A stretch of 38,449 nucleotides of DNA from Deltaproteobacteria bacterium (GCA_003599365.1 QZJR01000016.1:1-38449); one strand, 5' to 3'. Shown: positions 6,188-36,753, numbered from the stretch's first letter. The notes: generated by a model from the sequence alone, not told the origin. Program-made: numbers and translations.

Positions 6188-6226
6188 AAGCGGCTGTTTA
6201 GGGATACGCCTCAGATGGACTTATCT

Positions 6227-6254
6227 AGGCTATTAGGCTACAGGCTAATAGCCT
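6227..6254. terminator. Perfect 10-bp-stem hairpin between convergent genes; possible bidirectional terminator and repeat-family member
   Basis: 'aggctattag' (6227-6236), 8-nt loop, 'ctaatagcct' (6245-6254), followed by 'ttgtcacttt'. Lies between the LysE stop (6187) and the ATPase stop (6258). Confidence 0.5.
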
Positions 6255-6257
6255 TTG

Positions 6258-8564
6258 TCACTTTATACAGACAGCCCGTACCTGTTTAACATCGGTATAT
6301 CCCTTGATTGCCTTTTCTATTCCATCCTGTTTTAACGTCCTCATACACTCTTTCATGGCCTGCTCCCGGATCTCTTCAACCCGTGCTTTGTTTTGGATTA
6401 AGGCTTTGATTTCATCAGAGGCTATCAGTAACTCATGTATCCCCATCCTTCCTTTATAACCTGTATTGTTGCAGGTTGGACATCCTACAGGGGTATAAAA
6501 GGTCATATCCTGGGAATAAGCGATGTCTAAATCTTTAAAGTATTCCTCTCCATATTCCATCACTAGATTCTTAAACTCTTCCTCTGATGGGTTATATGGT
6601 TTTTTACATTCCTTACAAAGTGTTCTTAAGAGTCTCTGAGCCAGTACCCCTAATAGTGCATCGGCAAAGTTGAAAGGATCCATTCCCATGTCCAAAAGCC
6701 TTGTGATGGTCTCAGGAGCACTGTTGGTGTGTAACGTGCTGAACACAAGGTGTCCTGTCAAGGATGCCTCAATACCCGTAGAAACAGTTTCTTCGTCTCT
6801 CATCTCACCGACCATAATCACATCCGGGTCCGCCCTTAAAAATGCCCTCATTGCTGCCGCAAAGTTTAATCCAATCTTTGGGCGTACCTGGACCTGTCTC
6901 AATCTATACTGGGTAATCTCAACAGGGTCTTCTGCCGTCCATATCTTTTTCTCCGGTGTATTGATAAAGCCCAAAGCCGAATGGAGAGTAGTTGTCTTTC
7001 CGGAGCCTGTAGGCCCCACCACCATAACAATTCCGTACGGCTTTTGTACAATTTCTTTAAAAAGATTCAAGTTTCTATCAGACATGGCCAACTTATCCAA
7101 CGGGATAGGTTCGCTGGCAGCAAGAATCCTCATGACTACATCCTCTGTCCCCCCGCTAGTTGGAAGGGTAGCTACCCTCAGCTCTATCTCCCTTCCCCCA
7201 CGTATCTTGAATTTGATCTTTCCATCCTGAGGCAATCGCCTCTCAGCTATGTCCAGCTGCGACATGATCTTTATCCTGGAGACAACTGCCATTTTGTGAC
7301 TGTAGGGAATAGTCTGGTAAGGAACGCACATACCATCTATCCTAAGTCTAATCTCTGTATTGCTCTTGCCTGGGTACGTCTCAACATGAATATCAGAGGC
7401 ATCCCTGTTGTATGCTTCGGTTATTATCTTGTTAACCAGTTGGACTATAGCGCTATCATCCTCACTTACCTGTTGATCCAGAGTATCAAATTCGCCTACA
7501 TCATCTTCGTCATCGAGTTTGTTCAATATGTCAGAGATCGTCTCTCTGCTCGCCTCTTCACCAAAAAAGAGGGTTAGGTAACTTATTATATCCCCCTTCA
7601 AGGCAACAACGAATTCACAACTTCTCTTTCCAAATTTTGCCTTTATAAAGTCAGTCCTCTGAAGGTCGGTCGGATTGTCAATAACGATAACTATCTTATC
7701 CCCGTTCTTTTCTAATGGGACCCATAGGGTTTTTTTCAAATAGCTAACCTTCAAACCCACCAACAGTTCCCCGGGTATAACAGTCTTGTCATCGAATTGA
7801 ACAAACCTGCATTTATAAAAATCACTCAGTGCCTTGCCAATATCTGACTTTGAAATCTTGAATCTCCTCATCAATATGGATTCGATCTCTTCTCTTTGCT
7901 CCCTGGCGTCCTTTATGGCTTCCTCCAGTTCTCTGGAAGTAATAATATGGTTGGTTACCAGGTAATCGAATTTAGAGGACCGCCTTTTACGTATCTTGAT
8001 CTGATTATAAAAGGCTATCCCCAAAATCTTTGCAATCTCAGTAATGGATATTTGATCCTCTACAGTAAAATCAGCATTATCCTTCTTGTTAATTAACTGT
8101 ATGACCCCTAATAAGTACCTCTCAAATATAATGGGAGCCGCTAAAACCTGGACAGTTTTATAACCCGTCTTCTGATCCCAGCTCTTATCAAATCTGAGAC
8201 CCGGATTAATACTTTTCAGTTGTTCTGTATCATAGGCATTAGATATATTGACAAGTTCCTTGGAATACGCTGTATAACCTGCAATGCTTTCAGGGTTTAC
8301 AGGAACCCTGATCTCCTTTATTCCGTTTCCAACCATAAACCTTGAATAGAGTTCCTTTTTAACCCCATCTACTGCGTAGATTGTAATCCTGTCTGCATCA
8401 AACACTCTGAGCATGTCATCCTTTAAATCAACAAGAATCTCATTTATATTCTTGGCGGAGTGGATACGATTGGTAATCTCCCTCAATGCCAATCCATACT
8501 CCACTTCCTTCTTTAGTTTTTCAACGTTGTTTTCAGTATTGTCTGTCTTTTTTGCTATATCCAA
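6258..8564 (-). CDS. GspE/PilB-family secretion ATPase with an N-terminal GAF domain and a T2SSE_N-like domain
   Basis: Walker A 'GPTGSGKTTT', Walker B 'DPDVIMVGEMRD', His box 'GHLVFSTLHTN', and a tetracysteine 'CKECKK..CPTCNNTGYKGR'. The N-terminal ~190 aa are GAF-like. TTG start with SD 'ggagag'. Confidence 0.9.
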   Translation of the reverse strand: MDIAKKTDNTENNVEKLKKEVEYGLALREITNRIHSAKNINEILVDLKDDMLRVFDADRITIYAVDGVKKELYSRFMVGNGIKEIRVPVNPESIAGYTAYSKELVNISNAYDTEQLKSINPGLRFDKSWDQKTGYKTVQVLAAPIIFERYLLGVIQLINKKDNADFTVEDQISITEIAKILGIAFYNQIKIRKRRSSKFDYLVTNHIITSRELEEAIKDAREQREEIESILMRRFKISKSDIGKALSDFYKCRFVQFDDKTVIPGELLVGLKVSYLKKTLWVPLEKNGDKIVIVIDNPTDLQRTDFIKAKFGKRSCEFVVALKGDIISYLTLFFGEEASRETISDILNKLDDEDDVGEFDTLDQQVSEDDSAIVQLVNKIITEAYNRDASDIHVETYPGKSNTEIRLRIDGMCVPYQTIPYSHKMAVVSRIKIMSQLDIAERRLPQDGKIKFKIRGGREIELRVATLPTSGGTEDVVMRILAASEPIPLDKLAMSDRNLNLFKEIVQKPYGIVMVVGPTGSGKTTTLHSALGFINTPEKKIWTAEDPVEITQYRLRQVQVRPKIGLNFAAAMRAFLRADPDVIMVGEMRDEETVSTGIEASLTGHLVFSTLHTNSAPETITRLLDMGMDPFNFADALLGVLAQRLLRTLCKECKKPYNPSEEEFKNLVMEYGEEYFKDLDIAYSQDMTFYTPVGCPTCNNTGYKGRMGIHELLIASDEIKALIQNKARVEEIREQAMKECMRTLKQDGIEKAIKGYTDVKQVRAVCIK

Positions 8565-13427: not shown

Positions 13428-13460
13428 CTCTTAACTCCTTAAAAGATAATTGTCATTATT

Positions 13461-15197
13461 CTAAACAAACGAATCCATCTGCCACTCACCAAATACGCCT
13501 CTCAAAACATCACACTGTTCTTGAAGGGTAGCGTATTCTCTTGCCAGATTAACAAAAAGAGGCATCAGGTTCTCATCGTCCTTTTTGGCAGCCCTTTCCA
13601 ACTCTCCAAGAAGCCTCGTTACTTCCCGGTTGTTCCTTGTACGTTTGACTTCAGCAAGGTTAGCCTTCTGCTTTTTCTCGGCATCATACCTCTTCTCTTC
13701 AGAATACGGATGCTCAACCATCTTGCTGGTGGTCACATCCAGCTCGTATTCCTCTGTGAAACAGTTCACTCCAACTATGATATCTTCTCTTTTCTCTATC
13801 CTGGACTGACGTTCAGCAGCGCTCTTTGCAATCGAGCGTTGCATATACCCGTTCTCAATAGCAGCCACAGATCCACCTATCCCCTCGACTTTTTCCAGTT
13901 CTTTCCATGCTGCTTCCTCTATTTCATTGGTCAATGACTCTACATAGTAAGACCCGGCCAGAGGATCTAAAACATCGCACATCCCTGTCTCATACATGAG
14001 AATCCTTGTTGCATCCTCTGCAAGCTGCCTTGCTTCCAAACTCCAACCCAATCCCAGCGGCTCATCATACGGCGGGAAGGCCAATGGCGGACCTCCCGAA
14101 AGAACACCGGCTACTGCGCCTATTACTGAGCGGGTAAGATTGTTCAGTGCCCGTTGTTTGGTGGTGGTACTGATACCACTATAGGCTGTGTATTGGCTTC
14201 GGATTCTCATGCTTTCGGATTTCTTTGCACCGAATCTTTCCTTGAGAATCTTAGCCCACATACGGCGAGACGCCCTATGGAAAGCGATCTCCTTGAAAAA
14301 CTCCATACTACCACCAAAACCTACAAAGGAAAACCTGGGGGCAAAGGCATCAATATTGAGTCCTGCATTTATCCCTTCCTGTAAATAAGCAATCCCGTTA
14401 GCCATAGTGAATGCCAATTCCTGCTCTCTTGTGGCTCCTCCCTCACGGATATGAGCACCGCCAAAGCCGTTTATATTCATCGCCGGAAGACTCTCCGTAA
14501 AGAAGACCAGACTGTCTCGAAACATACGCATGGAAGGCCTCGGAGGGAATATGTAGGTGCCGCGGGAAATAAACTCCTTTAGTATGTCATTCTGGGGGGT
14601 ACCCTTCAACTTTGCCAGTGATATACCCCTCTTCTCTGCAAGAGCCACATACATGGCAACCAGGATATTTGCAGGGGCATTTATCGTCATGTTTGTAGCG
14701 ATCTTGTCCAGATCCAGATTGCCTGTAAATGCCTCAAATATAACCTCAAAATCCCGCAAGGTGTCTACTGCCACACCCACCTTACCTATCTCTCCTTCAA
14801 CTATCTCATTATCCGAATCATAGCCGCACTGGGTAGGAAGATCTAACGCCAGGTTGGGCCCGCCTGTATACATTAATTTCGCCATTAATCTGTAGTAATC
14901 CCTGGTGTCTTCCGGGGTTCCATATCCGGAATATGTTCCTGCCCTTCTCAACCCCCCAGGCTTTGCACCTTTTTCAAGTCTTGGTACAAGATTTACCGGA
15001 TAAGAGGCTGCCGTCAATGGATATTGCCCAGGGAAACCCACATCCCGTAAGAAATCAAAGTCCGGTATGTCTAAAGGCGTATGGAATTCTGTCGGCCTTT
15101 TTTCTATACCAAACCTCTTGGCCGCAGGCAACAACGCCTTCTCCTCCCATTCCTCCTTCTTCTCTTTTATCTCAGCCAATTTATCTTTATTATCCAT
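13461..15197 (-). CDS. Acyl-CoA mutase large (catalytic, B12-dependent) subunit, divergent paralog 1 (578 aa, no fused B12 domain)
   Basis: MCM-family core: 'GTPQNDILKEFISRGTYIFPP', 'HIREGGATREQELAF', 'DPLAGSYYVESLT'. The N-terminal signature diverges ('FPGQYPLTAAS' in place of '..TRG'). Confidence 0.9.
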   Translation of the reverse strand: MDNKDKLAEIKEKKEEWEEKALLPAAKRFGIEKRPTEFHTPLDIPDFDFLRDVGFPGQYPLTAASYPVNLVPRLEKGAKPGGLRRAGTYSGYGTPEDTRDYYRLMAKLMYTGGPNLALDLPTQCGYDSDNEIVEGEIGKVGVAVDTLRDFEVIFEAFTGNLDLDKIATNMTINAPANILVAMYVALAEKRGISLAKLKGTPQNDILKEFISRGTYIFPPRPSMRMFRDSLVFFTESLPAMNINGFGGAHIREGGATREQELAFTMANGIAYLQEGINAGLNIDAFAPRFSFVGFGGSMEFFKEIAFHRASRRMWAKILKERFGAKKSESMRIRSQYTAYSGISTTTKQRALNNLTRSVIGAVAGVLSGGPPLAFPPYDEPLGLGWSLEARQLAEDATRILMYETGMCDVLDPLAGSYYVESLTNEIEEAAWKELEKVEGIGGSVAAIENGYMQRSIAKSAAERQSRIEKREDIIVGVNCFTEEYELDVTTSKMVEHPYSEEKRYDAEKKQKANLAEVKRTRNNREVTRLLGELERAAKKDDENLMPLFVNLAREYATLQEQCDVLRGVFGEWQMDSFV

Positions 15198-15252
15198 GAT
15201 AAGTCTACCTCCCTATCTCAGTTGATAAAACATGGTTGTCATTATTCTAAAC

Positions 15253-15380
15253 GTAACTATTCAGGCAGGCACAAAGGCACAGAGCACCAAAGGCACAAAG
15301 TAGGAAAAAACAATGAGACGACCCTGCTCCGCTCTGCTTTGTACCTATGTGCCTTTGCCACTTTGTGCCTGAGTAGTTAC
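15253..15380. mobile_element. 128-bp MITE with terminal inverted repeats and an 8-bp target-site duplication
   Basis: TIRs are 'gtaactattcaggcaggcacaaag' (left) and the reverse complement of the right end, 'gtaactactcaggcacaaag'. Flanking direct repeats are 'ttctaaac' (15245-15252) and 'ttctagac' (15381-15388). The paralogous empty site at 13451-13470 reads 'tgtcattattctaaacaaac'. Confidence 0.7.
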
Positions 15381-15382
15381 TT

Positions 15383-17119
15383 CTAGACAAACGTATCCAA
15401 CTGCCACTCACCAAACACACCTCTTAAAACATCGCATTGCTCTTGAAGGGTCGCATACTCCCTTGCCAGATTAATGAAAAGGGGCATCAGGTTCTCATCT
15501 TCCTTTTTAGCAGCACTCTCCAATTCTTTCAGAAGCCTCGTAACCTCCCGGTTATTCCTTGTCCGCTTCACCTCAGCCAGATTGGCCTTCTGCTTTTTCT
15601 CGGCATCATACCTCTTCTCTTCAGAATACGGATGCTCAATGATCTTACTGGTGGTTACATCGAGCTCATATTCCTCTGTAAAACAATTCACCCCTACAAT
15701 AAGTTCCTCTCTCCTCTCTATCCTGGCCTGACGCTCGGCAGCGCTCCTTGCACATTCGCGCTGCATATACCCGTTTTCTATTGCCGTCACGGCACCCCCT
15801 ATCCCTTCGATCTTCTCCAGCCCTTTCCACGCAGCATCCTCTATTTCGTTGGTCAATGATTCCACATAGTAAGACCCGGCCAGAGGGTCTATAACATCGC
15901 ACATCCCCGTCTCATACATGACAATCCTTGTGGCATCCTCGGCCAGTTGTCTCGCTTCTAAACTCCAGCCCAACCCCAGCGGTTCATCATATGGTGGAAA
16001 TGCCATTGGCGAACCTCCGGAGAGAACTCCAGCTATTGCCCCTACCACAGAACGGGAAAGGTTGTTCAGCGCCCGCTGCTTGGTGGTGCTGCTGCAACCA
16101 ATATGAGCTGAGAGAGGACACCGGATCCTCATACTATCCTGCTTCTTTGCACCGAACCTTTCTTTAAGAATCTTTGCCCACATACGGCGAGCTGCCCTCT
16201 GAAAGGCTACCTCCTTAAAAAGCTGCATGCTCCCCCCAAACCCATTGAAGGTAAACTTGGGGGCAAAGGCGTCAATATCGACCCCTGCATTCACACCCTC
16301 CTGCAAATAGGCAATCCCTATGGCCATACTAAAGGCCAGCTCCTGTTCCCGAGTAGCTCCCCCTTCACGAATATGATACCCACCGATACTGGTTATGTTT
16401 ACCCCTGGAAGATTCTCAGTAAAGAAGACCACGCTGTCTCGAAACATCCGCATAGAAGGTCTCGGAGGAAATATGTAGGTGCCCCTGGAAACAAACTCTT
16501 TTAGTATGTCATTCTGGGGTGTACACCTTAGTTTTGCCATGTTTATGCCCCTCTTTTCAGCCAGGGCTATGTACATGGCAACCAGGATATTTGCAGCGGC
16601 ACTGATGGTTATGTTCGTGGCTATCCTGTCCAGATCCTGCTCTCCTGTAAATGCCTCATAAATAACCTCAAAATCCCGCAAGGTATCTATCGCGACCCCC
16701 ACCTTGCCTACTTCCCCTTCGACCGTCTCATTATCCGAATCATAACCGCACTGGGTAGGGAGATCTAATGCCAGGTTGGGACCGCCTGTATACATTATCT
16801 TCGCCATCTGCTTATAGTAATCCCTGGTATCTTCCGGAGTGCCATAGCCGGAATATGTCCCTGCCCTTTTCAACCCCCCAGGCTTTGCACCCTTTTCAAT
16901 CCGAGGCACAAGACTTATTGGATAAGCTGATGGGGTAAACGGATATTGCCCCGGAAAACCAACATCACGCTCAAAGTCAAAATCCGCTATATCCAAAGGC
17001 GTATAGAATTCCGTCGGACTTTTCTCTATACCGAACCTCTTGGCTGAGGGCATCAATACCTTCTCTTCCCATTCCTTCCTCTTCTCTTTTATCTCACTCA
17101 ATTTATCTTTATTATCCAT
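15383..17119 (-). CDS. Acyl-CoA mutase large subunit, divergent paralog 2 (578 aa), tandem duplicate of 13461-15197
   Basis: Collinear with paralog 1 with no indels (constant 1922-nt offset), roughly 80-85% aa identity by eye. 'CTPQNDILKEFVSRGTYIFPP' and 'GGYHIREGGAT'. Confidence 0.9.
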   Translation of the reverse strand: MDNKDKLSEIKEKRKEWEEKVLMPSAKRFGIEKSPTEFYTPLDIADFDFERDVGFPGQYPFTPSAYPISLVPRIEKGAKPGGLKRAGTYSGYGTPEDTRDYYKQMAKIMYTGGPNLALDLPTQCGYDSDNETVEGEVGKVGVAIDTLRDFEVIYEAFTGEQDLDRIATNITISAAANILVAMYIALAEKRGINMAKLRCTPQNDILKEFVSRGTYIFPPRPSMRMFRDSVVFFTENLPGVNITSIGGYHIREGGATREQELAFSMAIGIAYLQEGVNAGVDIDAFAPKFTFNGFGGSMQLFKEVAFQRAARRMWAKILKERFGAKKQDSMRIRCPLSAHIGCSSTTKQRALNNLSRSVVGAIAGVLSGGSPMAFPPYDEPLGLGWSLEARQLAEDATRIVMYETGMCDVIDPLAGSYYVESLTNEIEDAAWKGLEKIEGIGGAVTAIENGYMQRECARSAAERQARIERREELIVGVNCFTEEYELDVTTSKIIEHPYSEEKRYDAEKKQKANLAEVKRTRNNREVTRLLKELESAAKKEDENLMPLFINLAREYATLQEQCDVLRGVFGEWQLDTFV

Positions 17120-20836: not shown

Positions 20837-21631
20837 CTATCTTCCTTTGAAAATTGGCTCACGTTTCTCCATAAACGCCTTCATGCCCTCAACTCGATCC
20901 TCAGTATTCCAGCATACCCCAATGGTCATCACTTCGTAATCAACGGCTTGTGATATGTCCATATTATAAAAATTCTGGAGACCTCTCTTTGCCAGGGCTA
21001 TTGGTATCGGGGCATTCTTTGCCATTTTCTGGGCCAGTTCTTTTGTTGCGTGAATGAGATTATCGTGGGGCACCACTTTATTGACCATGCCAATTCTAAG
21101 CGCCTCTTCAGCATCTATTATGTCTCCTGTAAAAATCAATTCTGCCGCCTTGGCATAGCCAACCAGCCTCGGCAAAAACCAGATACCTCCCCAATCAGGA
21201 TGTACCCCTCGTTTCACAAATGCCTGAGAAAATCTGGCACGCTCACTCGCAATACGGATGTCACACGATAGGGCAAGGTTGCACCCACCGCCCGCGGCCG
21301 CCCCATTTACAGCGGCAATGACCGGCTTCTCAATAGAATTGATTAACAGGACAATCTTGCTCATGGCAGGCCGTTCACTGGTAGCGATATTTGAAAGGGC
21401 CTTTGTAGTTCCAGAAACAAATTCATCTATATCGCCCCCTACGCAAAACGCCTTTCCTGCCCCTGTAATCACTATCACACGTACATCGCCATCAGAGCAG
21501 GCGAGTTCAAGGGCTGCCAATATCTCCTGTCGCATATTGCCGCCCAGGGCGTTGTATTTTTCAGGCCGATTTAAGGTAATTGTGCCGATACCATCCTCTT
21601 TTTCAAACAATACAAATTCCCATTCCATCAT
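20837..21631 (-). CDS. Crotonase-fold protein lacking both canonical hydratase glutamates
   Basis: 'LNRPEKYNAL' and 'GGGCNLALSCDIRIASERARFSQAFVKRG' (Glu1 to Asn, Glu2 to Phe). ATG at 21631 sits 5 nt after SD 'aggagg'. The track's TTG at 21649 is unlikely. Confidence 0.9.
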   Translation of the reverse strand: MMEWEFVLFEKEDGIGTITLNRPEKYNALGGNMRQEILAALELACSDGDVRVIVITGAGKAFCVGGDIDEFVSGTTKALSNIATSERPAMSKIVLLINSIEKPVIAAVNGAAAGGGCNLALSCDIRIASERARFSQAFVKRGVHPDWGGIWFLPRLVGYAKAAELIFTGDIIDAEEALRIGMVNKVVPHDNLIHATKELAQKMAKNAPIPIALAKRGLQNFYNMDISQAVDYEVMTIGVCWNTEDRVEGMKAFMEKREPIFKGR

Positions 21632-23468: not shown

Positions 23469-23915
23469 CTAGCCCTTTAAAGCAAACATTACATCACAGC
23501 ATTCATCGCCGGCTGCCACCGTCTTCAAGATAGAGAGGTCAATTTCTTCCCCTGTAGCCGCTTCAAAGATCCCTATATCCATATTCATCATGGCCTCACA
23601 TAACGGACGACCGGCACCGGCCAAGCCTAATGCACACCGTTCGTTTTTGCATCTAAGCCTTTTTTCTGTGAGTTCGAGTAGTGTTACCGGACTTTTACGC
23701 CGTTTAGCGCCTTCCAAAAAGGCGCTGCCAACACTCTTGAGGTCAAAGGAATCCAAATTTGTTCTCATCTGGTTTCCAATAGCCCTTCCCAACCTGCGGC
23801 ACACCTCCCCTATAAGAGGCAGAACCTCATCACCATACTTTTTATAAATCATACGGCTTAACAATGCCAGTGCATCCCTTGCAGTATTTACCTCAACTTC
23901 TTGCAATGAATTCAT
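23469..23915 (-). CDS. Small Cys-rich protein, possibly ATC-hydrolase-like (PF14196-type) fold
   Basis: The C-terminal pattern 'RCKNERCALG..PLCEAMMNMDIGIFEA..AAGDECCDVMF' resembles that family's C..C / LC..D / G..CDF signature as I remember it. The family assignment is tentative. Confidence 0.55.
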   Translation of the reverse strand: MNSLQEVEVNTARDALALLSRMIYKKYGDEVLPLIGEVCRRLGRAIGNQMRTNLDSFDLKSVGSAFLEGAKRRKSPVTLLELTEKRLRCKNERCALGLAGAGRPLCEAMMNMDIGIFEAATGEEIDLSILKTVAAGDECCDVMFALKG

Positions 23916-34999: not shown

Positions 35000-35015
35000 T
35001 CTCCACCTCCAAGTT

Positions 35016-35086
35016 TAGACTATAGACTATTAGCCTGTAGACTATTAGCCTACTTCAGCCTACAGCCTAAACACCTGAGTAGTTAC
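35016..35086. repeat. Tandem 'tagactattagcct' repeats ending in the 'cctgagtagttac' terminus shared with the MITE
   Basis: Copies lie at 35023-35036 and 35038-35051. The block is 24/28 identical to the reverse complement of hairpin 6227-6254. 'cctgagtagttac' occurs at 35074-35086 and also at 15368-15380. Confidence 0.55.
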
Positions 35087-36753
35087 ATACCGAAGTAGCA
35101 TCCCCATACATGGCTTAGATCTGCCGGGCCATAAACCTTTTCTCTTATCTCAACAATCTCTCCGATGCTCAGATATGCCTTAACAGCCTCTACCATAGGT
35201 CCTATTATATTTATTCTATTCCTGTACGCATCTTCCAGCAGCTTCTTCGCTTTCTCTGCTTTTCCAGGGTCTCTTTTCTTCTTAACTCTATCGAGCCTTT
35301 CTATCTGTTTGTCTCTCCAGACAGGATCGTATCCCAGAATATCCGTATTACCGAGATCAATCCCCCCTTCACCCTCTCTCACAACAAATCTATTAACACC
35401 CACCATAGCCCTTTCGTTATTGTCTATGGCCTTTTGCCTGAGATATCCGGACTCTTTGCCCTGATCAACAATATACTTATATGCCTTCCGGGGCTCCATA
35501 TCCTCTAATTCTTTCAGTGTCTCTAATGCCTTTTGTTCAAGTTGATTGGTAAGAGACTCTATGCAATATGAACCCCCTAAAGGATCGATAACGTTTGCTA
35601 CACCGCTTTCATGGCCAATTATCTGTTGGGTACGCAGTGATAAGGTAGCTGAAGCCCTGGTTGGTATGGCTAATGCCTCGTCAAAGGAGTTTACAGACAT
35701 TGACTGAGCACCCCCCAGCACAGCAGCAAGGGCGTGGATGGTAGAGCGGATTACGTTATTAAGGGGCTGCTGGGCTGTCAGGTTAATTGCTGTGGTCTGG
35801 GTATGGAATCGCATAAGCCATGATCTGGGATCCCTGGCATTGAACCTTTCTTTAACTGTCCTTGCCCATAACCTGCGCATTGCGCGGAATTTGGCTACCT
35901 CTTCCAGGAAGTCATTCTCAGAGCTGAGAAAAAAGGAGATCCTTGGGGCAACTTCATCAACATCTATGTTCCTTGCGATTACGGATTGCAGGGTAAAACC
36001 TCCCATGTAGACCCCAAAAGCAATTTCCTGAGGGGCAGATATGCCTTCATCCCTGATATTCCTCACAGAGATACTGGTATGGTTCCATCGCGGCAGATTC
36101 TTTGTGCAATACTCACTGATATCCACCGAACCATTCCCCCTCATTTGCGGGCCTTCGCCAAAAGGGAAAACACAGTTCTGAATAGTTCCGGACAGATTCT
36201 TAAAATCTATACCCTGCCTTTCGGCTTCTGCCAGAATCATGGCAAAGACAGGTATGGAAAAGCCAATCTGGTTGATGCTGATCTCAGACATATCTATCCC
36301 GTCAAACAGGGTTTCAATGTCTGCCAGGGTATCAATCCATACCCCGCCCTTTCCCAGAATACCAAAACTCCGTTCATCACCGGACTCATAGGGCTGGTAG
36401 CCCATTCCGCAGACACTGAATCCGGTCTGCCCTTGTTTAAATAGATATTTCAGCCTCTCGTTGGTCTCCTCAGCAGTCCCCAATCCTACTACCTGTCTTA
36501 TAGTCCATTCTTTTGTCCTATAACCTGTTGGCGTGACCCCCCTGGTAAAGGGATACGAACCGGGGGAAGAAATATCTTCAACATAGTTATTGTCTTTAAT
36601 ATCAAGAGGGGTGTAAATCGGTTTTAAGGGGAGCCCTGAAAGGGTTGTCATCTCTTTCTCTTCTATTGAAAATTTCTTTAAGACTTCTTTAACACTGGCT
36701 TCATATCCCTTGTTCAATTGCTCAATCTCTTTCAATATCTCTTCTTTAAACAA
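35083..36753 (-). CDS. Acyl-CoA mutase large subunit, paralog 4 (556 aa), with the most divergent active-site motifs
   Basis: 'SPGSYPFTRGVTPTGY', 'HTQTTAINLTAQQPLNN', 'DPLGGSYCIESLT'. However, it has 'GTIQNCVFPFGEG' and 'VRNIRDEGISAPQEIAF' in place of the QNDILKE and GYH..EAGA motifs. TTG start with SD 'ggagg'. Confidence 0.88.
   Translation of the reverse strand: MFKEEILKEIEQLNKGYEASVKEVLKKFSIEEKEMTTLSGLPLKPIYTPLDIKDNNYVEDISSPGSYPFTRGVTPTGYRTKEWTIRQVVGLGTAEETNERLKYLFKQGQTGFSVCGMGYQPYESGDERSFGILGKGGVWIDTLADIETLFDGIDMSEISINQIGFSIPVFAMILAEAERQGIDFKNLSGTIQNCVFPFGEGPQMRGNGSVDISEYCTKNLPRWNHTSISVRNIRDEGISAPQEIAFGVYMGGFTLQSVIARNIDVDEVAPRISFFLSSENDFLEEVAKFRAMRRLWARTVKERFNARDPRSWLMRFHTQTTAINLTAQQPLNNVIRSTIHALAAVLGGAQSMSVNSFDEALAIPTRASATLSLRTQQIIGHESGVANVIDPLGGSYCIESLTNQLEQKALETLKELEDMEPRKAYKYIVDQGKESGYLRQKAIDNNERAMVGVNRFVVREGEGGIDLGNTDILGYDPVWRDKQIERLDRVKKKRDPGKAEKAKKLLEDAYRNRINIIGPMVEAVKAYLSIGEIVEIREKVYGPADLSHVWGCYFGM

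Follow-up and report, generated by a model that had tools for sequence, protein, structure and literature searches.

A miniature inverted-repeat element with ISBst12-type ends beside the stop codon of a methylmalonyl-CoA-mutase-family gene in groundwater Desulfobacteria

Two tandem mutase genes on contig QZJR01000016.1 (38,449 nucleotides, analyzed over its full length and called the window below) are separated by a spacer that holds a 128-bp hairpin, which begins 2 nt after a stop codon. The contig comes from a metagenome-assembled genome (MAG) of groundwater Desulfobacteria (Thermodesulfobacteriota), a relative of sulfate reducers. The question that this locus raises is what the hairpin is, how it came to lie there, and what it did to the gene beside it. 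A sequence-only reading of the window had proposed that a miniature inverted-repeat transposable element (MITE) was inserted inside the last two codons of the first mutase gene and that its target-site duplication (TSD) regenerated the C terminus and the stop codon. Our analysis identifies positions 15253 to 15380, with a probability of about 0.88, as a MITE whose ends have the sequence that ISBst12-group DDE transposases, within the IS66 family, recognize. The element is a true and ordinary transposon insertion that left the mutase protein unchanged. It is small and non-coding, has terminal inverted repeats (TIRs) and a TSD of fixed length, occurs in dispersed and polymorphic copies, and shares its ends with insertion sequences (ISs).

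The element and the end of mutase 1

Mutase 1 (15383..17119, minus strand) and its tandem paralog mutase 2 (13461..15197, minus strand) each encode 578 amino acids with the MM_CoA_mutase domain (PF01642). The two proteins are 84% identical in a gap-free alignment, and both are full-length large subunits of the B12-dependent methylmalonyl-CoA-mutase family. The open reading frame (ORF) of mutase 1 is intact and ends in GTC TAG, while that of mutase 2 ends in GTT TAG. The spacer between them is 185 nt long, as had been stated, and contains the 128-bp element. The extent of the element (15253..15380) and its junctions with an 8-bp direct repeat were confirmed. The distal copy of this repeat (15245..15252, minus strand) reads TTCTAAAC on the window strand and GTTTAGAA on the gene strand; the gene-proximal copy (15381..15388, minus strand) reads TTCTAGAC and GTCTAGAA, respectively, and consists of the Val codon GTC, the stop codon TAG, and AA. 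One transition separates the copies, and it is the synonymous GTT/GTC change that had been described. On the gene strand, the occupied site is ACGTTT GTCTAGAA [128 bp] GTTTAGAA TAATGACAACCATGTTTTA, and the end of the paralog is TCGTTT GTTTAGAA TAATGACAATTATCTTTTA, with no element. The paralog had been offered as an empty-site control, and it serves as one: the 17 nt directly after the element are identical to a sequence that the paralog holds only once, and the paralogous empty site (13459..13466, minus strand) carries a single GTTTAGAA followed by TAATGACAA. The string quoted for that site was accurate, and its start is corrected here from 13454 to 13453.

The TIR on the side distal to mutase 1 is GTAACTATTCAGG (15253..15265, plus strand), and the one adjoining the mutase 1 stop is GTAACTACTCAGG as read on the minus strand (15368..15380; CCTGAGTAGTTAC on the window strand); GTAACTATTCAGG and GTAACTACTCAGG agree at 12 of 13 positions. 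Inverted ends of about 20 bp had been proposed. The inverted ends are present, but only 13 nt of them (GTAACTAYTCAGG) are conserved across the family, and the further "cacaaag" pairing belongs to the interior of the subfamily to which this element belongs, shifted by a 4-nt indel. The arms are built of 8-nt GGCACAAA-like units that enclose a loop of about 30 nt, and nearly all of the element is hairpin. It is 93% identical to the consensus of its subfamily (18 copies), and members of the wider family span 68 to 244 bp. Other subfamilies have 7-nt periods or none, and a link between the 8-nt period of the arms and the length of the 8-bp TSD was rejected on that ground. The long hairpin holds up as an RNA fold, with a minimum free energy of -59.8 kcal/mol (z = -5.6) that was equaled in 0 of 200 shuffles. 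The sole ORF across the element is a mechanical one (15081..15386, plus strand, 101 amino acids), antisense to the start of mutase 2.

So stable a fold, placed between co-directional genes, could also be read as a conserved cis-regulatory or structural RNA of the mutase operon (an attenuator, terminator, or processing site) that was never mobile. The recurrence of the same 13-nt end at the 3′ end of another mutase gene (35074-35086) would fit such an RNA. Yet no Rfam match reached the gathering threshold in the whole window, and no terminator-like site was found on either strand in 15000-15600, where the hairpin is followed by GUUUAGAAUAAU. There is no U-tract, and the hairpin is therefore not a canonical intrinsic terminator. 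No σ70-like promoter was found around the element. The distribution of the copies, given in the next section, bears further on this alternative.

Copies, target duplications, and target choice

With each GTDB species represented by one genome, a scan for both 13-nt ends lying 85 to 115 nt apart returned more than 119 loci with paired ends, where about 0.1 would be expected by chance according to our own estimate. Scanning JGI metagenome contigs for the end characteristic of the subfamily of the window element yielded at least 120 loci, which represent at least 79 distinct insertion sites. The sequence-only reading had staked its proposal on the existence of further copies with the same terminal logic, and both expectations were borne out. 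Among the matches listed, 161 unique copies from other genomes (about 1 Mb of loci) could be assessed for TSDs: a perfect 8-bp direct repeat abuts the ends in 93 of the 161, a 9-bp repeat in none, and control flanks match at most at 5 of 8 positions. A second data set gave a perfect 8-bp TSD at 39 of 94 distinct sites.

It had been conceded that the flanking 8-mers might turn out to be part of the inverted repeat, and in the window copy the inverted repeat does continue into them, because the target is nearly palindromic (TCTAGA). Elsewhere in the family, the flanking 8-mers differ from copy to copy, and metagenome contigs branch apart as loose ends precisely at 15253 and 15380/81. This identifies the 8-mers as target duplications that lie outside the element, and the objection fails. 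In four groundwater and mine-drainage metagenomes (per-run contigs from Logan), the depth over 15253-15380 is 50 to 100 times that of the flanks (about 1000 versus about 10 in run X1).

Among the matches listed, the same 13-nt ends enclose about 30 interiors that are mutually unrelated, beside unrelated genes, and this end is all that the subfamilies have in common. The taxa bearing these copies are known from MAG labels, with single-contig binning taken as given. The labels include Chloroflexota/Anaerolineae, with dozens of copies of about 112 bp per MAG, as well as Elusimicrobia, Nitrospirota, Nitrospinota, Firmicutes, Methylomirabilis, Gamma- and Betaproteobacteria, Bacteroidota, and Verrucomicrobiota. 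Further labels are Bdellovibrionales, Omnitrophota, Deferribacteres, Chamaesiphon (a cyanobacterium), and one ANME-1 archaeon.

A conserved RNA of the mutase operon is difficult to reconcile with ends that recur around unrelated interiors, next to unrelated neighbors, and in many phyla, or with copies that bear 8-bp target duplications. Moreover, the orthologous mutase spacers of relatives differ in which element they contain or in where it lies. We consider a non-mobile RNA extremely improbable and retain the interpretation as a MITE insertion.

The composition of the TSDs is 67% AT, compared to 49% in the flanks, with the consensus S-A-W-W-W-W-T-S. Empty sites were reconstructed for 149 insertions with good TSDs, and native stop codons are evenly distributed between -36 and +4 nt relative to the cut; beyond +4 nt, where the native stop lies after the cut, insertion counts collapse. 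Targeting of stop codons was rejected, since the reconstructed empty sites spread evenly around the native stop. The flat distribution indicates instead a preference for AT-rich targets combined with purifying selection against protein change, and such a preference by itself favors gene 3′ flanks and stop codons. The insertion in the window, in which the native stop ends 2 nt before the cut, has a typical placement among the 149 sites. On 21 of 322 element sides, the TAA of the TIR terminates an ORF of 100 codons or more. The earlier statement that the TSD restores the final Val codon and stop is accurate as a description of a staggered cut, but it has no functional meaning: the element begins 2 nt after the TAG, and the "regeneration" follows of necessity, since on the gene side the target copy was never separated from the gene.

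Occupied and empty sites in relatives

Comparison with relatives that are 92 to 97% identical to the window, a check that the sequence-only reading had suggested, revealed both occupied and empty states for the same and sister elements. An element of the same subfamily lies after mutase 2 in L005 and L174, in the opposite orientation, at the place where the window is empty (13459..13466). In L011, both mutases have a sister element with the same ends within their last Val codon; the element contributes G+TAA, and the former gene end is still recognizable downstream. The sequence AAGGGCTA at 23470-23477 (minus strand), comprising the last two codons and the TA of the stop, is empty in the window. 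The identical 8 bp are occupied by a 92-bp element in L243 and by a 128-bp element of a different subfamily in L250, and at this site TAG is restored by the initial G of the element. Similarly, the site at 20840-20847 (minus strand) is vacant in the window, whereas L250 and L005 carry an insertion there that changed AGA-TAG to AGG-TAA and preserved Arg-stop.

The 8-bp repeat might alternatively be a by-product of tandem duplication or of gene conversion between the 3′ ends of the paralogs, with the element having arrived otherwise or slightly elsewhere. The distal copy and the 9 nt beside it (GTTTAGAATAATGACAA) are identical to the 3′ end of mutase 2, while the proximal copy reads GTC. The mutase 1 ortholog in L005 likewise uses GTC for this Val, and the distal copy may therefore have changed, or have been converted from the paralog. 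Spacer turnover is high in the relatives, and the mutase 1-mutase 2 spacer of L005 lacks the 29-nt TAGAATAATGACAACC... segment. This explanation is nonetheless improbable, as the repeat is exactly 8 bp long and abuts both TIRs, as it does in the 93 copies counted above; gene conversion would not place a repeat in register with the element ends, and one transition suffices to account for the mismatch. As a separate observation, the same spacer of L005 (94% identical) holds a different, 181-bp element (7746-7926) with ends GTAACCGTTCACGG / ..CCGTAAACGGTTAC and flanking AGATGAG repeats; mutase 1 ends there in TGA, and the element may represent a second MITE family with GTAAC ends.

A further possibility accepts the MITE but holds that it was kept because its RNA hairpin sets a differing expression or stability of the two paralogs. 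The element is retained in each of the four contigs encoding the identical mutase, some MITE is present in the mutase 1-mutase 2 spacer of each of three related lineages, and the stem is long enough that it might be a substrate of RNase III. The spacer elements differ in type and position between the relatives, however, which indicates that neutral insertions have recurred in an AT-rich spacer that tolerates them. We therefore regard such an exaptation as unlikely, although it deserves somewhat more credit than gene conversion does. The ribosome-binding site of mutase 2 (GGGAGG) is undamaged and lies about 37 nt past the element and 29 nt past the distal TSD copy.

A one-ended relic of a sister subfamily with TAGGCTGT units is located at 35013..35086 (minus strand). 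It keeps the end GTAACTACTCAGG (35074-35086) and is missing the other TIR. The relic sits between a third, distant mutase gene (35083..36753) and the gene for its B12-binding subunit, and the TAA of its end (35083-35085) is the stop codon of the third mutase gene. The orthologous spacer in L120 (1230-1400) is arranged differently, with the gene end ...YFGM-TAG, then 15 nt left over from the opposite end, and an entire 128-bp GGCACAAA-type MITE, so that this spacer must have been hit and remodeled repeatedly. A run of TAGCCTGTAGCCTAATAGCCTAG at 6220-6260 of the window resembles the arm units of TAGGCTGT-type MITEs and may be another relic; in L174, a GGCACAAA-type MITE occupies the adjoining site.

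The surrounding gene cluster also codes for a B12-binding small subunit, a radical-SAM protein, a family III CoA-transferase, enoyl-CoA hydratases, and major facilitator superfamily transporters, and it holds two further pairs of mutase and B12-binding genes besides the tandem mutases. Four methylmalonyl-CoA-mutase-family large subunits fall within positions 10000-37000 (the tandem pair 84% identical, the others about 30%), together with three B12-binding small subunits, a radical-SAM/PDZ protein, an AMP-binding ligase, and several enoyl-CoA hydratases. In its gene content, this region looks like a pathway for the anaerobic carbon-skeleton rearrangement of acyl-CoAs.

ISBst12-type ends and known systems

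The GTAA ends and the 8-bp duplication pointed to the IS66 family, of which ends starting with GTAA and an 8-bp direct repeat are hallmarks (PMC11946415). Within this family, the ends of the element have the continuation typical of the ISBst12 group, which includes ISBst12 of Geobacillus stearothermophilus. A member of that group, ISDge4 of Deinococcus geothermalis, has the TIRs GTGACTACTCAGCA / GTAACTGCTCAGCA and an 8-bp direct repeat, encodes a single 449-amino-acid transposase, and has been observed to transpose (PMC12898284). The TIRs of our element match those of ISDge4 at 11 to 12 of 13 nt. Over its first 12 nt, the element exactly matches the right end of an ISBst12-group IS on the Geobacillus plasmid pHTA426 (L132 14107-15741, 1635 bp, ends GTATCTATTCAGCCC / GTAACTATTCAGCCC, TSD GACGAGTT), the RefSeq product of which is "IS66-like element ... 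transposase." The pHTA426 transposase has thousands of metagenomic homologs with PF03050, PF13005, and PF20042. Three ISs with PF03050+PF13005 transposases were drawn from this set: one of 1583 bp in L133 (ends GTAACTATTCAGC / GTAACTATTCAGG, TSD ATAAAAAG), one of 1598 bp in L140 (ends GTAACTGCTCAGCCTG on both sides, 16/16; no TSD seen, flanks differing), and one of 1571 bp in L146 (ends GTATCTGCTCAGGC / GTTACTACTCAGGCC, TSD CTTTTGTT). The end GTAACTATTCAGG of the L133 IS is the identical 13-mer found as the distal TIR of the window element. Autonomous ISs of 1.57 to 1.64 kb that encode an IS66-type (PF03050/PF13005) transposase share the 12- to 13-nt ends and, except in L140, show 8-bp duplications. 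The contigs L133 to L138 join the left flank of one site of the 1583-bp IS to the right flank of another (ATAAAAAG / AGAAGTTC), a signature of assembly chimeras across a multi-copy IS.

Several results weigh against the identification of the element as an ISBst12-mobilized MITE or limit what follows from it. The two TSD copies agree at 7 of 8 positions, leaving one mismatch. The only empty control for the mutase 1 site is the paralog: an exact scan of metagenome contigs for the empty allele TGGATACGTTTGTYTAGAATAATGACAA gave 0 matches, and no joint skipping the element was seen in the four metagenome runs. A tblastn search with five ISBst12-type transposases against the window and about 2 Mb of MITE-bearing loci gave no match to such a transposase gene, and no 0.6- to 4-kb GTAA..TTAC unit with a TSD was detected in the MITE-bearing loci. 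Mobilization in trans is therefore, for this organism, something that we infer. A by-eye comparison of the GGCACAAA arms with the subterminal sequences of the three metagenomic ISs and with the ends of the pHTA426 IS found no likeness, and on these sequences the element does not appear to descend from a known parent IS by internal deletion. As to any effect on transcription, no RNA runs containing the locus were found.

Several other candidates were set aside. Multi-copy ORFs were not found near the MITEs. Two TIR pairs 2.3 to 2.8 kb apart in L027 and L030, considered as an autonomous parent, enclose housekeeping genes and no transposase, and "solo" ends considered as ends of a parent IS are mostly degenerate MITEs. 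The distant homologs P0015 and P0008 are uninformative as empty-site controls, being single-copy genes in other contexts.

Under the MITE interpretation, an ISBst12-group transposase encoded elsewhere in the genome or community would bind both 13-nt ends, as the behavior of the family suggests, and would cut the AT-rich target GTYTAGAA with an 8-bp stagger. This target would comprise the final Val codon, the stop TAG, and the next 2 nt. Repair of the gaps would duplicate the 8 bp, and the mutase would be unchanged because the gene-side copy remains joined to the gene. A C/T transition would have occurred later in one TSD copy. Such insertions presumably survive because they lie in AT-rich 3′ flanks and leave proteins unaltered. 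Any mRNA reading through between the mutases might contain the stem of about 50 bp, which, as the analogy of other bacterial MITEs and of REP elements suggests, could conceivably act as an RNase III substrate or as a block to 3′ exonucleases and uncouple the transcript levels of the paralogs.

For the mutase locus itself, the insertion has little consequence: the mutase is intact, and AT-rich 3′ flanks hold many MITE insertions that look neutral, of which this is one. The MITE family is a marker of strain-level variation in uncultured groundwater Desulfobacteria, and as a repeat it breaks metagenome assemblies, the per-run Logan contigs stopping at the element ends. It also ties a very common environmental repeat to the IS66 transposases of the ISBst12 group, little-studied enzymes for which about 13 bp of end sequence seems to suffice. 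Should mRNA processing be altered by the hairpin, the locus would be a natural experiment on the divergent expression of tandem paralogs. A notable by-product of the analysis is the breadth and modularity of the family, in which the same 13-nt end recurs in many phyla around unrelated interiors. In the literature searched, the TIR string is absent from any microbial context, and neither an IS66-derived MITE nor this family was found described. We tentatively propose, with rather less than even confidence, that these copies form an undescribed and very widespread MITE superfamily. It would be defined only by the 12- to 13-nt ISBst12-type end, comprise at least 30 unrelated hairpin interiors, and, by MAG label, extend across more than 15 bacterial phyla and to one ANME-1 archaeon. 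It would have been recently active in groundwater Desulfobacteria, where it remodeled the spacers of the acyl-CoA-mutase cluster, and its G-TAA end would sometimes become the stop of the upstream gene. If this is true, interiors that share only their ends would imply that MITEs arise by end capture or by de novo formation of ends around palindromes and not by deletion from a parent IS.

As a small, abundant, intergenic palindrome within operons, the element resembles the repetitive extragenic palindromes (REPs) and bacterial interspersed mosaic elements (BIMEs), which can stabilize upstream mRNA, and it might on that account be thought to have been spread by a REP-associated tyrosine transposase (RAYT; an IS200/IS605-like HUH enzyme) and not by a DDE transposase. 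REPs have no TIRs matching an IS end and no TSD, whereas the window element has an exact 8-bp TSD and ends equal to those of IS66/ISBst12-type ISs, so that we give a REP/BIME origin hardly any weight. The MITE interpretation finds closer parallels in the Correia elements of Neisseria, the ERIC/IRU elements of enterobacteria, and the RUP elements of Streptococcus pneumoniae. These are non-coding MITEs of about 100 to 150 bp with TIRs and a TSD, which occur in many copies in the intergenic spacers of co-transcribed genes and form long RNA hairpins; effects on RNA processing and promoters have been shown for them. They differ from the window element in their ends, in their TSDs (for instance TA for Correia and RUP), and in their presumed transposases.

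Classical IS66 elements (tnpA/B/C) share the GTAA ends and the 8-bp direct repeat with the window element (PMC11946415). Their inverted repeats are 20 to 30 bp long and start with GTAAGCG, in contrast to GTAACTAYTCAGG with 13 conserved nucleotides. The autonomous members of the ISBst12 group are about 1.57 to 1.64 kb long with one PF03050/PF13005 ORF, whereas the window element is 128 bp long, carries no transposase gene, and has an unrelated hairpin as its interior that is not a shortened copy of any IS read. What the two have in common are the terminal GTAACT(A/G)(C/T)TCAG(C/G) and the 8-bp TSD.

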